From contig JAUXXF010000016.1 in the NCBI GenBank assembly GCA_030681135.1, positions 129,402-193,401 on the forward strand: 64,000 nucleotides of DNA, written 5' to 3'. The notes under the pieces are model-generated. The model was given only the letters and a program-made list of their open reading frames with translations. It was not told where the DNA came from and did no database searches. Every line of letters begins with the position of its first letter. The stretch's first letter is position 1. Positions 36,108 to 44,304 of this stretch are shown here, one piece after another. Both the position numbers and the translations under genes were made by a program. The stretch is from Chlamydiales bacterium. Its GTDB lineage: Bacteria > Chlamydiota > Chlamydiia > Chlamydiales > SM23-39.

Positions 36108-37256
36108 ATGAGGGTGATTCCTGGACGTATTCCTGTTGCCATTCATCCTTTTTTCTGGGTGTTTTCTGCATTGATCGGTTGGTTTTATGGCCAAAGTTTG
36201 CTTGGAATGTTCATTTGGATAGGAATTATTTTGCTCTCCGTATTGATCCATGAATATGGTCACGCTCTTACGGCGGTGTTCTTTCGTCAAAAAGCAAGCA
36301 TTCAACTAGTGGCCTTCGGTGGGTTGACCACTTATGATGGCGGACCGCCGCTTCGGTTTTGGCAGCAATTTGTGATTGTTTTGAATGGCCCTTTATTTGG
36401 TTTTGGTCTTTGTCTGCTCGCGACAGCTCTTTTATGGGCGCCTTGGCCGCTTTTAGGATATAAGATCTGTAAAGCGTTTCAGATGGCCAATTTGCTGTGG
36501 AGTGCAGTCAATCTTCTTCCTGTGCTTCCTCTAGATGGAGGACAGCTTCTTCGAATTGCTTTGGAAGGGATATTTGGCCTTAAGGGATTTAGGGCGTCTT
36601 TATTGCTTAGCGCGGCGCTCTCTGGAGTTTTTAGCTGTGCGGCTTTTGTGTTTTCTTATTTTCTAGCCGGAGCCTTTTTCTTTTTGTTTGCTTTTCAAAG
36701 TTTTGATGCCTGGAAAAAATCCCGGTTTGCTACGCAAGAAGATCGGTCTGAAGAGAATAATCTCCTCATGGGACAAGTAGAGCTTGCCATCAAGGAGGGA
36801 AAAAAAGAGGAGGCAAGGCGGCTGCTTGAAGAGTTAGTAGTCAAATCGCCTCACGGCGTGCTCTTTGTAACAGCAAACCAATATTTAGCCTTTTTTGATA
36901 TGCAGCAAGGAAAGCCTGAATCAGCTTACGAGCGTTTATTGCCTTTGAAAGAGCTTCTTGCGGAAGAATCGATTTGTTTATTGCATCGATTGGCCTTTGA
37001 GCATGCCAACGATTCGGTCGTTCGAGAGCTTTCTACCAGATGTTATCAAATTGCTCCGACTCAGGAAGTGGCCCTGCGCAACGCAAGGAGCTTTGGACGT
37101 CTAAATGAGCCGACAGCTGCAGGCGGATGGATCCAAACAGCTTGGCAGCATGGAGCTTTTGATCTAGAGAAGCTTCTTGCAGATAGCGCTTTTGCCCAAG
37201 TCAAACAAGATGCTTCCTTTGTAGAATTTATCACTCCTATTCGACATCGAATTTGA
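36108..37256 (+). CDS. M50-family (site-2 protease-like) membrane metalloprotease with a helical C-terminal domain
   Basis: It has an HExxH motif (HEYGHAL) in a TM context, multiple TM helices, and LPVLPLDGG. Confidence 0.8.
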   Translation: MRVIPGRIPVAIHPFFWVFSALIGWFYGQSLLGMFIWIGIILLSVLIHEYGHALTAVFFRQKASIQLVAFGGLTTYDGGPPLRFWQQFVIVLNGPLFGFGLCLLATALLWAPWPLLGYKICKAFQMANLLWSAVNLLPVLPLDGGQLLRIALEGIFGLKGFRASLLLSAALSGVFSCAAFVFSYFLAGAFFFLFAFQSFDAWKKSRFATQEDRSEENNLLMGQVELAIKEGKKEEARRLLEELVVKSPHGVLFVTANQYLAFFDMQQGKPESAYERLLPLKELLAEESICLLHRLAFEHANDSVVRELSTRCYQIAPTQEVALRNARSFGRLNEPTAAGGWIQTAWQHGAFDLEKLLADSAFAQVKQDASFVEFITPIRHRI

Positions 37257-38496
37257 CCAAGCTGTCTAACAGAGCCTTTTTATCAAACGTTACGATCTTG
37301 ACGGCGCAATCATTTTCCCCGCAGGCAAGGTGGATTAGCTCCCGATCTTGCTGTTTTTCTACTACAAATCCGGAGGGGAAAATGACCCGTTTCCAATTTT
37401 GAGCTGTATTAGCGATTGGAGCGTCAAAGATGCCACGGAATAAAATAGGATAAGGAGACATTCTTGTGATAGTAAAAGGAGGCTCAGCTTTAAATGTGTA
37501 AGCTCCCATCACGTACCAAACCAGTCCTTTTTTTTCTGTAAAGGCGCTATGGAAAAATGCAAGATATTCGTCTCCGATTTTCTGTGCAGGGGTTCCTCCT
37601 CTAATTTGCCCCCATTTGTTGGGCCACGAGAAAGAGCAGTATGCTACCTCTCTTGGTAGAGGGAGATACTTTAATTCGTTTTTTGTTGGATCGGGGAGAG
37701 AAAAGAGCGTTCGTGGGCTAATTTGATATTCAAAGATGAGCTCTGGCTCTTTGTCTTTAGGAGTGTATTCGAAAGATCCCCAATTTTTCTCGATCCATTG
37801 TAAGTTCATGTCCAACACAGTCATGTAGTTTACATCAAAGGTTTTCTCGTTGATATTGGCAAGAGTCATACATCGGCAGCGGAGATTTTCTTCATCCAAC
37901 ATGTTAAAGGTTAAATAAATTTGGTCTTTAACTTTCGTAACACGAGGGTCTTCTGTATAGTTAGATGGTATGGGGATTTTTTTAAACTCTTGATTTCCCT
38001 GTTTAAAATCACGATCTAAAGTTACAACGCCTATGTGAGAATGATAGGGGACGTATTTGGCCTTTGAAGAGGTTACATCATATCTGAAAAATAGGTGGTA
38101 GCCAGATTCAGAGGCAATTAAGCTTGGATTATGGGGAGCATGAACATTTCTGATATCGATGGGAGTGACTCCCAAGATGAGTCCAGAATCTTCTCCGAAG
38201 GGAATGTTAGTTAGTTTTTCGGGGGTTGGGACTTTTCCTAAACAGTCAGCTGCAATGGCTTTATACTTAAGCTTGTTCATTGTAGTGCGAAGGATTTTTT
38301 CTTTTTTCTTCACTTTATGCATCTGAAGCTGAAAAAAAACAACCGAGCCGCAGGTACACAAGATCAACAGAGCAATAAGCCATATTAATCCCCGCCTGTT
38401 TTTTTGTTTGGTGGAGAGCTTCTCTTCCAGCCAAGATTTCAGTTTTTCAGTTTGCTGTGAATTTTTTGATGTTTTCGGAGGCTCTAATTGTTGCAT
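37237..38496 (-). CDS. Membrane-anchored GH130/DUF377-like beta-propeller glycosidase/phosphorylase-fold protein (paralog 1)
   Basis: It has an N-terminal TM anchor (LIWLIALLILCTCGSVVFF). The motifs EDPRV, EKNW, WGQIRGGTPA, FFHS, YVMGAYTF and CGENDCAVKI recall GH130 signatures. This is from memory and not verified. Confidence 0.5.
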   Translation of the reverse strand: MQQLEPPKTSKNSQQTEKLKSWLEEKLSTKQKNRRGLIWLIALLILCTCGSVVFFQLQMHKVKKKEKILRTTMNKLKYKAIAADCLGKVPTPEKLTNIPFGEDSGLILGVTPIDIRNVHAPHNPSLIASESGYHLFFRYDVTSSKAKYVPYHSHIGVVTLDRDFKQGNQEFKKIPIPSNYTEDPRVTKVKDQIYLTFNMLDEENLRCRCMTLANINEKTFDVNYMTVLDMNLQWIEKNWGSFEYTPKDKEPELIFEYQISPRTLFSLPDPTKNELKYLPLPREVAYCSFSWPNKWGQIRGGTPAQKIGDEYLAFFHSAFTEKKGLVWYVMGAYTFKAEPPFTITRMSPYPILFRGIFDAPIANTAQNWKRVIFPSGFVVEKQQDRELIHLACGENDCAVKIVTFDKKALLDSLVKFDVE

Positions 38497-38627
38497 TTTT
38501 TTTCCTATATGGACGAGTATATCCCTAAATTTAATCTAGAAGATGAAAAGAGAAAAGAGAAAAAAAATCAGTTGTGAGTTTTCTTGTATGTATGGAAAAA
38601 TCTATTTTTTATTGAGATGATTTTTTG

Positions 38628-43555: not shown

Positions 43556-43564
43556 GGGGGGGGG
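43556..43564. repeat. G9 homopolymer tract in the intergenic region upstream of the 43666 methyltransferase gene
   Basis: ttttttgggggggggctag contains nine consecutive G, about 100 nt upstream of the ATG. Confidence 0.9.
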
Positions 43565-43665
43565 CTAGTTTTGATCTTCTTTCTATCAAATGAAAATTTT
43601 TGACATAAAGTGAGGATTGATGTATAAAACGCAGGTAATATTTTTTTTTAACAAAGGAGTTCTTT

Positions 43666-44304
43666 ATGCGTTTTTTTTCTTTTTTCTTATTAACCATGGT
43701 ATCGATATCTTGCATCAATCTGCATGCAGAGTCTTCGCATATACCGCCTCAAGATATTAGAACAGACAGAGCTAAATACGTTTCTTCACTGATTCGTCCT
43801 GGAGATGTTGGTGCAGAAATTGGAGTATGGCAGGGGGTGTTTGCATATCACACCTTGCTTCAGCGGCAGCCATCGCAATTATATCTCATCGATCCATGGA
43901 TAGGTGGTACAGAGTCAGATCCAGATAGAGGACATCTAGCTTCTGAGGCGCAGCGCGCTAGAGATCAAATGTGTGAGAATGTTCAGCAAATATTTGCTCC
44001 TTATCCAAATGTAAGAATTATGAGGATGAAATCAGAAGAAGCTGTAAGTTCTTTCCCGGATCAATTTTTTGATTATGTTTATATTGATGGTGACCACTCC
44101 TATGATGGTGTGATGAGAGATCTTGTTAACTATCTCCCCAAAGTTAAGGTAGGTGGTTTGCTTATAGGAGATGACTACGGATGGGGTCAAGTATCAGTGG
44201 CTGTTCAAGATTTTTTGCGAGCACATAAGAATGAATTATTATGGGGTGGAGATCCTTGTAAAAAAGGAAGGGAAGGTCAGTTTTTTATTAAAAGAGTGAG
44301 ATAA
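43666..44304 (+). CDS. Class I SAM-dependent methyltransferase (Methyltransf_24 / TylF-like) with a signal peptide
   Basis: It contains EIGVWQG and YIDGDHSYDGVMRDL...GGLLIGDDY. The RBS is aaaggag. The N-terminus is MRFFSFFLLTMVSISCINLHA. Confidence 0.7.
   Translation: MRFFSFFLLTMVSISCINLHAESSHIPPQDIRTDRAKYVSSLIRPGDVGAEIGVWQGVFAYHTLLQRQPSQLYLIDPWIGGTESDPDRGHLASEAQRARDQMCENVQQIFAPYPNVRIMRMKSEEAVSSFPDQFFDYVYIDGDHSYDGVMRDLVNYLPKVKVGGLLIGDDYGWGQVSVAVQDFLRAHKNELLWGGDPCKKGREGQFFIKRVR

Follow-up and report, generated by a model that had tools for sequence, protein, structure and literature searches.

The window analysed here is a stretch of 64,000 nucleotides from a Chlamydiales bacterium (GenBank assembly GCA_030681135.1, contig JAUXXF010000016.1), and within it we are concerned with an island of seven glycan-modification genes between positions 37237 and 44304. 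All seven open reading frames (ORFs) are intact and have exactly the coordinates given in the initial annotation of this DNA, and for six of them Pfam and NCBIfam searches returned the families that it had named. Each product begins with a hydrophobic N-terminal segment; these segments are conserved among the chlamydial homologs and largely missing from viral relatives, and we consider below the view that the enzymes probably act outside the bacterial cytoplasm. The genes are as follows:

37237..38496, minus strand: GH130-like propeller (GH130a), 419 residues; PF04041, 2.7e-8
38625..39797, plus strand: diverged GH130-like paralog (GH130b), 390 residues; family alignment, 35% identity to GH130a
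39943..40785, minus strand: FkbM-family S-adenosylmethionine (SAM) methyltransferase, 280 residues; PF05050, 5e-18, and TIGR01444, 2e-26
40851..41720, minus strand: GT25 glycosyltransferase (GT25a), 289 residues; PF01755, 8e-14
41737..42531, minus strand: GT25 glycosyltransferase (GT25b), tandem paralog with a leader, 264 residues; PF01755, 1e-13
42745..43521, plus strand: DUF1796 protein, 258 residues; PF08795, 2e-19
43666..44304, plus strand: Methyltransf_24/TylF-like methyltransferase, 212 residues; PF13578, 2e-17, and PF05711, 6e-8

N-terminal leaders and anchors

The leader counts given here rest on simple heuristics. For the window one fixed rule was used, which requires an uncharged run of at least ten residues with high hydropathy, near the N-terminus and with no later transmembrane segment. 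By this rule a hydrophobic N-terminal segment is present in all seven ORFs of the island, as first claimed, against 5 of the 42 other ORFs of the window (Fisher p=9e-6), and those five are themselves plausibly exported (an Rhs toxin, a beta-lactamase-fold protein, an outer-membrane protein and others). The segments had been described as signal peptides or signal anchors; more precisely, five of the proteins (GT25a, GT25b, FkbM, DUF1796 and the Methyltransf_24 protein) have short signal-peptide-like leaders, and GH130a and GH130b carry transmembrane anchors instead.

The FkbM leader is MKPPSLIFVITSCLCVFSTLGLFG, that of GT25a is MKRFFFLFCIFCIFMHFNAPLWA and that of the Methyltransf_24/TylF-like protein is MRFFSFFLLTMVSISCINLHA, while in the DUF1796 protein MKFVCLCILFLGNLVTG stands ahead of the conserved FVSLGxxCE...PFDW core. 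In the NCBI annotation GT25a is a protein of 275 residues that begins at Met15, and the leader, encoded at the start of the gene (41679-41720), is thereby lost; an ortholog with 75% identity retains the full MKRPFFLFYILCMFMHFNAPLWA. Several database homologs of GT25 and DUF1796 are cut off at the N-terminus in the same manner as the annotated GT25a. With such misplaced starts, automated surveys would under-count the exported members of these families.

All five short leaders have lysine or arginine (K/R) at positions 2-3, a hydrophobic run with a median length of 15-17 residues, and acidic or neutral residues after it. The same holds more widely for the signal-peptide-type families, in which K/R stand before the hydrophobic run, and in 76 of 117 cases the next charge beyond this run is an acidic one. 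Judged from the sequences, this charge layout fits that of Sec signal peptides, with the N-terminus inside and the C-terminus outside. Two other kinds of signal were considered and rejected: lipoprotein anchoring, because lipoboxes are rare among the leaders, and Inc-type type 3 secretion signals, because the sequences have a single short run at the extreme N-terminus and no bilobed internal domain.

The leaders are also well conserved. They are found in about 38 of 42 full-length GT25 homologs, in 38 of 43 DUF1796 proteins and, among the copies that lie near GH130-like genes, in 14-15 of 16 FkbM and 32-42 of 46 Methyltransf_24 proteins, the latter range reflecting the heuristic used. They are retained even where the homologs share no more than 40-60% identity, and they are thus no artefacts of start-codon choice.

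Families and folds of the island enzymes

The folds of the two modelled proteins are clearly recognizable, and the donor-binding motifs of the island enzymes are intact. GT25a and GT25b score 52.5 and 52.2 bits against PF01755 (cutoff 24) and are 59% identical to each other, a duplication that is mirrored by the internal DNA repeats D1 and D2. The AlphaFold2 model of GT25a (predicted local distance difference test, pLDDT, 89.6) has a GT-A fold whose top Foldseek matches are GT25 structures. It is most similar to Mimivirus R655 and human COLGALT1 (profile search, 3e-10 to 8e-10; Foldseek, 7e-12), at an identity of only some 20-24%, with the solved bacterial GT25 galactosyltransferase coming second (8e-8 by profile, 6e-9 by structure). 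The EDD motif, H135 and H180 are invariant in the GT25 clade, and EDD is present in 99-100 of 100 outgroup proteins as well. C252 is likewise invariant in the leader-bearing clade, whereas 80 of the 100 outgroup proteins have V or I at this position. In the model its likely partner is C226, on the neighbouring predicted strand, and the two may form a candidate clade-specific disulfide, which fits with an oxidising compartment.

With the bacterial GT25 enzymes of lipooligosaccharide (LOS) and lipopolysaccharide (LPS) synthesis (Lic2A/LgtB type; 8xc8/8xlz), GT25a shares the Pfam family, the GT-A fold and a DxD-type motif. However, the known enzymes of this kind are cytoplasmic and have no leader, and GT25a differs from them in both closeness and leader: the leader is conserved, and R655 and COLGALT1 are both better matches than the solved bacterial GT25, so that GT25a does not fall within the Lic2/LgtB-type LOS-core subgroup. 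Nor are its nearest homologs ordinary bacterial LPS-core enzymes with similar N-termini; the nearest outgroup proteins of GT25 lie on giant-virus-like contigs (see below). The comparison with type II anchored collagen galactosyltransferases, which had also been made, was the wrong analogy. Human COLGALT1 is a soluble protein of the endoplasmic reticulum (ER) lumen; its signal peptide is cleaved off and an RDEL motif serves for retention. It is comparable in that it is active in a lumen of the secretory pathway once its signal peptide has been removed. However, it has two domains in addition to the retention motif, and R655 and most of the viral relatives are leaderless; GT25a differs from all of these. 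Nothing in the window suggests a collagen-like acceptor. Elsewhere, on a 3.3-Mb contig (L001:9187-11662), two GT25 genes of the same clade are followed by a polysaccharide pyruvyltransferase gene, and the database homolog P0042 (457 residues) is a GT25-pyruvyltransferase fusion, which links the two activities functionally.

GH130a consists of an N-terminal tail of ~36 residues, one transmembrane helix (residues 37-56), a lysine-rich stalk helix and a propeller. Its AlphaFold2 model (pLDDT 87.7) has a long helix over residues 34-78, followed by the beta blades of a five-bladed propeller. The top Foldseek matches of the model are beta-1,2-oligomannan and mannobiose phosphorylases (4e-12, TM-score on the target 0.64-0.68, 13-18% identity), and Leishmania GT108 enzymes are found at 1e-9. 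Sequence comparison gives a weak match of GH130a to PF04041 (33.6 bits against a cutoff of 26), and the family profile reaches at best 7e-6 against the PDB, over blades 1-2 only. An EDPR motif is invariant in the family (D183, R185) and aligned to the EDPR of 7fip; in GH130 we take this motif to hold the catalytic Asp. The chlamydial family thus has the five-bladed fold and EDPR in common with the GH130 beta-mannoside phosphorylases/hydrolases and the GT108 mannosyltransferase-phosphorylases, but it stands apart from them by the low identity, the marginal Pfam score, and the possession of a transmembrane anchor or signal peptide together with a basic stalk. Its chemistry could be that of a phosphorylase, a hydrolase or a transferase.

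GH130b has no Pfam match; it aligns with the family over its full length and keeps the invariant motifs FRxD, EDxR, EKNW, RGGTPA, FFHS and CGEND. Its transmembrane segment is at the extreme N-terminus, with a basic stretch following it, and an ortholog is present in the syntenic locus L003 of a related genome. A single transmembrane helix some 30 residues from the N-terminus is found in 106 of 120 GH130-like homologs. In GH130a and these homologs the order of tail, helix, stalk and propeller recalls that of a type II signal-anchor protein, but both flanks of the helix are basic, which makes its orientation ambiguous. Twenty-eight more distant relatives have a plain signal peptide followed by an acidic mature N-terminus, which suggests that the propeller domain works outside the cytoplasm. 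On IMG/VR contigs (L085-L092) there are eight distant relatives of the propeller (26-37% identity), all of them without an N-terminal hydrophobic segment and two of them part of multidomain proteins of ~560-620 residues.

The assignment of the remaining three proteins is straightforward. FkbM scores 66 bits against PF05050 (cutoff 22.7) and 93 against TIGR01444 (cutoff 37.7), its SAM motif I is visible as VDVGAHIG, and L003 has a leader-bearing FkbM ortholog. The last gene of the island scores 64.7 bits against Methyltransf_24 (cutoff 26.3) and 32.8 against TylF (cutoff 23), with the motifs AEIGVWQG, LIDPW and YIDGDH; from what is known of the family, we presume it to be a cation-dependent O-methyltransferase. 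The DUF1796 protein scores 70.4 bits (cutoff 23), and its residues C35, D54, W55 and H102 are invariant; the label "peptidase" that goes with it is putative, and no meaningful relative of it was found in the PDB.

Recurrence, viral relatives and chromosomal setting

When one genome per species was scanned with a profile of the GH130-like family, 122 relatives were obtained, from which 78 loci were kept. With the window and L003 there are 80 loci that contain a GH130-like gene, and L001 and L002, which were fetched for a GT25 homolog, bring the number of sources to 82. The ORFs of all these loci were called and clustered, and the cluster representatives were annotated. Nearly all of the 78 loci belong to chlamydial metagenome-assembled genomes (MAGs), of the Simkaniaceae, Rhabdochlamydiaceae and Parachlamydiales, with several labelled Verrucomicrobia; one is from the Babeliales and one is labelled Pseudomonadota.

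Over the 80 loci a leader or anchor is present in 147 of the 197 members of named glycosyltransferase and methyltransferase (GT/MT) families, compared to 218 of 956 other ORFs, a set that still includes unnamed glycan genes (odds ratio 10, p=5e-43). The most frequent neighbours are a second GT25-like family (50 copies in 28 loci) and Methyltransf_24 (46 copies in 28 loci), and they are accompanied by FkbM, GT4, GT90, GT2, GT92, polysaccharide pyruvyltransferase and GT17 genes, as well as by GT61, GT34, RXYLT1/GT47-like and additional methyltransferase genes. At least three leader-bearing GT/MT members occur in 23 of the 82 sources, and at least five in 13. Compared to their neighbours, the glycan genes of 46 out of 51 loci are poorer in GC, the median difference being -2.8 points. 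No flippase, polymerase or ligase gene (Wzx, Wzy, WaaL) and no GT-C gene recurs in the GH130-like islands; at single loci a TLC nucleotide transporter, an EamA transporter or a GT9 heptosyltransferase adjoins the cassette. The island is therefore not an isolated oddity; it is one instance of a phylum-wide pattern.

One example is an array of ~19 kb (L067:1330-19751) in which four GT92 and three GH130-like genes are found together with eight GT25-like genes in tandem, and nearly all of these have leaders. This is the locus labelled Pseudomonadota, which may be a binning error, or the pattern may reach beyond the Chlamydiota. In the MAG of the Babeliales (Dependentiae), which are an obligate intracellular lineage of amoebae, an FkbM and a GH130-like gene lie side by side (L068:104-2028), both with signal-peptide-like starts.

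With respect to the origin of these genes, we have searched 1.84 billion representative proteins exhaustively with a GT25 profile, which gives a ranking by E-value and not a phylogeny. The leader-bearing chlamydial clade ranks first, and the next tier (1e-47 to 1e-23) is composed of proteins of ~240 residues, most of which begin at the catalytic domain, with a minority having Ile/Asn-rich transmembrane anchors. All five of the contigs inspected that carry such outgroup proteins look viral, and four of them are giant-virus-like. Their recognizable content is as follows:

Contig with eIF4E, PCNA and a fused topoisomerase II
Contig of 304 kb with a PLOD-type glycosyltransferase
Contig with a protein kinase, 2C_adapt/HECT, RING fingers and GT11
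Contig with RINGv, UvrD and UDG
Contig with a run of small ORFs

Similarly, DUF1796 has 138 relatives in IMG/VR, mostly in giant-virus MAGs, at 24-42% identity. An N-terminal hydrophobic segment is present in 14 of 98 GT25 outgroup proteins and in just 1 of 78 viral DUF1796 proteins, whose copies start at the catalytic core, as against the 38 of 43 chlamydial-type copies mentioned above. Since the viral relatives are mostly leaderless, the export signal was added in the chlamydiae and is no relic of an earlier host. The suggestion that the genes had been acquired from a eukaryote or a virus is thus borne out in part: there is a link to giant viruses for GT25 and DUF1796 (virus-like contigs, ~25-38% similarity), but not an inheritance of targeting signals. 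A recent acquisition from viruses was rejected, because scans of viral contigs gave only distant relatives of GT25 (23-25%) and of the GH130-like proteins (26-37%). By these comparisons the GT25 and DUF1796 domains are common to these bacteria and to giant viruses of the same kind of host, and the transfer could have gone in either direction.

The setting of the island on the chromosome is defined by the following features, all of which lie outside the cassette:

36108..37256, plus strand: M50-family membrane peptidase (left flank; Pfam)
44929..45840, minus strand: YitT-family membrane protein (right flank; Pfam)
45887-46060: tRNA-Asp and tRNA-Val, followed by SurE, beyond the YitT gene

On the left the order M50 then SucD is common to the window and to L003, and the right flank (the yitT, tRNA and surE side) is kept there too. 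At this same site L003, whose GT25a is the 75%-identical ortholog, has a cassette of different content, with an extra GT2, another FkbM and three unknown leader-bearing proteins, and without the DUF1796 and TylF-like genes. By its constant site and differing content the cassette behaves like a variable surface-glycan locus. The AT-richness noted initially is real: the island genes have a GC content of 0.34-0.41 (0.29-0.41 at third codon positions, GC3), compared to ~0.44 and ~0.42 elsewhere in the 64 kb. GC falls most in the five genes at 39.9-44.3 kb, and the composition of GH130a is near the genome average. A classical integrative element is not supported, since neither flanking direct or inverted repeats nor mobile-element genes were found at the island boundaries; the nearest tRNAs are 1.6 kb off, past yitT. 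An ORF of 105 residues at 44545-44862 (minus strand) matches, over its first ~20 residues, a PDDEXK_3 protein of 122 residues at the equivalent position in L003 and then diverges from it; it is probably a frameshifted remnant that marks the right edge of the island.

Elsewhere in the window there is a gene for an RHS-repeat protein of 1,837 residues with a signal-peptide-like start (1868-7381), followed, up to position 10244, by a low-GC stretch (0.32-0.34) with five small same-strand ORFs of 101-130 residues. The region 1868-10244 has the appearance of a polymorphic-toxin locus that includes immunity or orphan cassettes; it accounts for the other AT-rich patch of the window. Two ORFs of 864 and 1,086 residues (25267-27861 and 28423-31683, both on the minus strand) have no Pfam match and a GC3 of 0.345; they may encode lineage-specific effectors or surface proteins.

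Donor supply and site of action

Chlamydiae import host nucleotides, nicotinamide adenine dinucleotide (NAD) and SAM through carriers of their inner membrane. These host metabolites must consequently be present in the periplasm, and the objection that there is no UDP-sugar or SAM outside the cytoplasm is weak for an obligate intracellular bacterium. The import of SAM and its carrier have been described (PMC3104491), and in Chlamydia trachomatis the glycogen synthase GlgA is active in the inclusion lumen on UDP-glucose that is imported there by a host transporter (PMC4829429).

Two of the cassettes bear on the question of donors. In different chlamydial MAGs there are UDP-glucose dehydrogenases (UGDHs) with signal-peptide-like extensions of 35-40 residues (L013:6539-7951, plus strand, and L070:12687-14081, minus strand), whereas ordinary UGDHs, taken as a control, start 2-6 residues before the Rossmann motif. 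The L013 protein has no start codon between residue 19 and that motif, and the L070 protein has no alternative start near it. If these two enzymes are exported, UDP-glucose and NAD must exist outside the cytoplasm. A metagenome scan for orthologs of the leader-bearing form returned only ordinary UGDHs (29-46% identity). The neighbours of the L013 gene (a UXS-like dehydratase, two GT61, an RXYLT1/GT47-like gene, two GT17 and two GT90) resemble a xylose-type pathway. The TLC-family nucleotide transporter (L009:12383-13915) and the EamA transporter of the drug/metabolite superfamily (L070:11672-12622) each adjoin a cassette in one genome, and they are possible, though non-recurring, routes of donor supply.

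Taking all of this into account, we think it fairly probable that Leloir glycosyltransferases and SAM methyltransferases are exported by the Sec pathway and act in the periplasm, on the surface or in the inclusion lumen, with the donors available there. Of the possible readings, action outside the cytoplasm, which the initial annotation had proposed, is best supported in silico, by the conserved Sec-like leaders, their chlamydia-specific addition and the many families concerned; the orientation of GH130a and GH130b is the ambiguous part, as their anchors have basic flanks. The island would then be a variable low-GC glycan-gene cassette at a fixed site between the M50 peptidase/sucCD and yitT/tRNA/surE. 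Its products would leave the cytoplasm by the Sec route, and signal peptidase would free five soluble proteins (the two GT25 enzymes, FkbM, the DUF1796 protein and the TylF-like methyltransferase), while the GH130-like propellers would stay tethered to the inner membrane by their N-terminal helix, with the propeller probably outside. In the periplasm, at the cell surface or, after further release, in the inclusion lumen, the GT25 enzymes might add hexoses to a glycan, the two methyltransferases might add methyl groups, and the GH130-like proteins might trim or transfer residues of the beta-mannoside type. UDP-sugars and SAM could be on hand there because the bacterium is obligately intracellular and its periplasm would hold imported host nucleotides, NAD and SAM. 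More tentatively, and somewhat less probably than not, the environmental chlamydiae, and possibly further obligate intracellular bacteria such as the Babeliales, may have a Golgi-like multi-enzyme glycosylation system outside their cytoplasm, in the periplasm or the vacuole lumen, in which glycosyltransferases of "eukaryotic lumen" families (GT17, GT25, GT34, GT47/RXYLT1-like, GT61, GT90 and GT92) are combined with methyltransferases, pyruvyltransferases and perhaps exported UGDH/UXS-like enzymes, run on nucleotide sugars, NAD and SAM supplied by the host, and draw on domains shared with giant viruses that have been refitted with export signals.

Several observations weigh against the export of these enzymes. 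Although n- and h-regions of the Sec type I kind are present in all five short leaders, the match of the c-region is mixed: AxA-like ends occur in many orthologs (for example SLAQA/TE, FASA/AP and VFA/DD, the slash marking the end of the leader), whereas the c-regions of the five leaders in the window itself are non-canonical, several having L at -3. In the GH130-like anchors and in the GT4a family there are about four K/R within 15 residues on the side of the catalytic domain, and no K/R precede the transmembrane segment of GH130b; by the positive-inside rule this favours a cytoplasmic domain, notably for GH130b. Leader-like extensions on four NAD-dependent epimerases/dehydratases were not counted, since all of these have possible downstream starts and are ambiguous. 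All the data derive from MAGs. Finally, bacterial glycosylation beyond the cytoplasm is by the textbook account a matter of polyprenyl-phosphate donors and GT-C enzymes (PMC11127046); the gene content of the cassettes, which have no recurring flippase or GT-C, does not, however, match that route.

The basic flanks of the GH130-like anchors would be accommodated if the N-termini were not cleaved and simply held cytoplasmic enzymes at the inner face of the inner membrane, where a lipid-linked glycan would be assembled and later flipped. Bacterial GT25, FkbM and TylF-type enzymes are, from general knowledge of the families, normally cytoplasmic, the matched GH130 phosphorylases and GT108 enzymes are described as cytosolic, and the GH130-like and GT4a anchors are basic on the catalytic side. 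Nevertheless, we consider such tethering improbable. In the five short leaders an orientation with the N-terminus in and the C-terminus out is predicted by the K/R at positions 2-3 and by the acidic or neutral residues that follow the run, the runs are short and of a length typical of signal peptides, 28 GH130-like relatives have plain signal peptides, the GT25 clade has its own conserved Cys pair, and no flippase or polymerase recurs. Tethering would also leave unexplained why the giant-virus relatives are leaderless while the gain of a leader is near-universal in the chlamydial copies. It is harder still to believe that the leaders are functionless in the bacterium, either as leftovers of eukaryotic or viral targeting or as the product of wrong start codons. 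The atypical composition of the island, the NCBI start of GT25a beyond its leader and the giant-virus-like contigs that carry the nearest GT25 and DUF1796 relatives might have pointed that way, but conservation largely refutes it: the leaders persist despite divergence to 40-60% identity and occur in at least 12 unrelated enzyme families, the mostly leaderless viral relatives exclude inheritance from viruses, and the similarity to viral copies (just 23-38%) leaves no recent transfer visible.

Export might, on the other hand, be directed at the host. The enzymes would then be released, by type II secretion or in vesicles, into the inclusion lumen, and instead of decorating the envelope of the bacterium itself they would remodel host glycoconjugates at the luminal side of the vacuole membrane or build a luminal polymer. 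This lumen is topologically equivalent to that of the ER and Golgi, where many of the leader-bearing families act in eukaryotes (GT17, GT25, GT34, GT47/RXYLT1, GT61, GT90 and GT92), the acceptor-building genes (Wzx, Wzy, WaaL) do not recur in the islands, and there is the precedent of a bacterial glycosyltransferase that uses host UDP-glucose in the inclusion lumen (PMC4829429). Even so, we judge it rather unlikely, because no link to a secretion system was found, the two GH130-like proteins are membrane-anchored rather than secreted, and the variable content (window against L003), the low GC and the large paralog arrays (L067) resemble bacterial surface-antigen loci. There is moreover a hint of an LPS acceptor, since a GT9 heptosyltransferase flanks one island and, judged from sequence alone, there is a possible MsbA-like exporter on the other flank of that locus.

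The use of a Leloir enzyme outside the bacterial cytoplasm on host-supplied donors is not in itself new, as precedents with single enzymes are already known. In Neisseria gonorrhoeae, Lst is a surface LOS alpha-2,3-sialyltransferase of the Leloir type that decorates the bacterium's own glycolipid using host-derived CMP-Neu5Ac. Like the enzymes proposed here it works extracytoplasmically on a host nucleotide sugar; however, it is a single GT52 enzyme of an extracellular or facultative pathogen, whereas the chlamydiae are obligate intracellular organisms with multi-family cassettes that include SAM methyltransferases and have Sec-type leaders. The luminal glycogen synthesis of C. trachomatis (GlgA and its partners) similarly places sugar-nucleotide enzymes outside the chlamydial cytoplasm on host UDP-glucose, but those enzymes are reported to be delivered by type 3 secretion and make one storage polymer (PMC4829429), while the cassettes have Sec-type leaders, comprise other families, are variable and belong to environmental chlamydiae. 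O-antigen and capsule loci and the GtrABC-type "three-component" systems (PMC11127046) are also low-GC variable cassettes at a fixed site that modify glycans beyond the inner membrane; they depend on polyprenyl-phosphate sugars, a flippase and GT-C enzymes, none of which recurs in the chlamydial cassettes, whose families depend instead on nucleotide sugars and SAM. In full-text searches of the literature no account of chlamydial GT/MT cassettes with leaders was found, and neither their scale nor the use of the Sec route, the breadth of families or the inclusion of methyltransferases appears to have been described.

As a rule, nucleotide sugars and SAM are substrates of the bacterial cytoplasm alone, and beyond the inner membrane bacteria turn to lipid-linked donors. 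If the enzymes considered here are indeed exported, this rule would lapse for a bacterium that lives inside another cell, since activated metabolites of the host would reach its periplasm, and bacterial glycobiology would gain a new compartment. One would then predict unusual glycans (methylated, pyruvylated or xylose-containing) at the interface between chlamydiae and their hosts. The cassettes would furthermore be a tangible example of genes that giant viruses and chlamydiae have shared and that were then retargeted, and they would account for a large block of the "hypothetical" accessory genes in the genomes of environmental chlamydiae.

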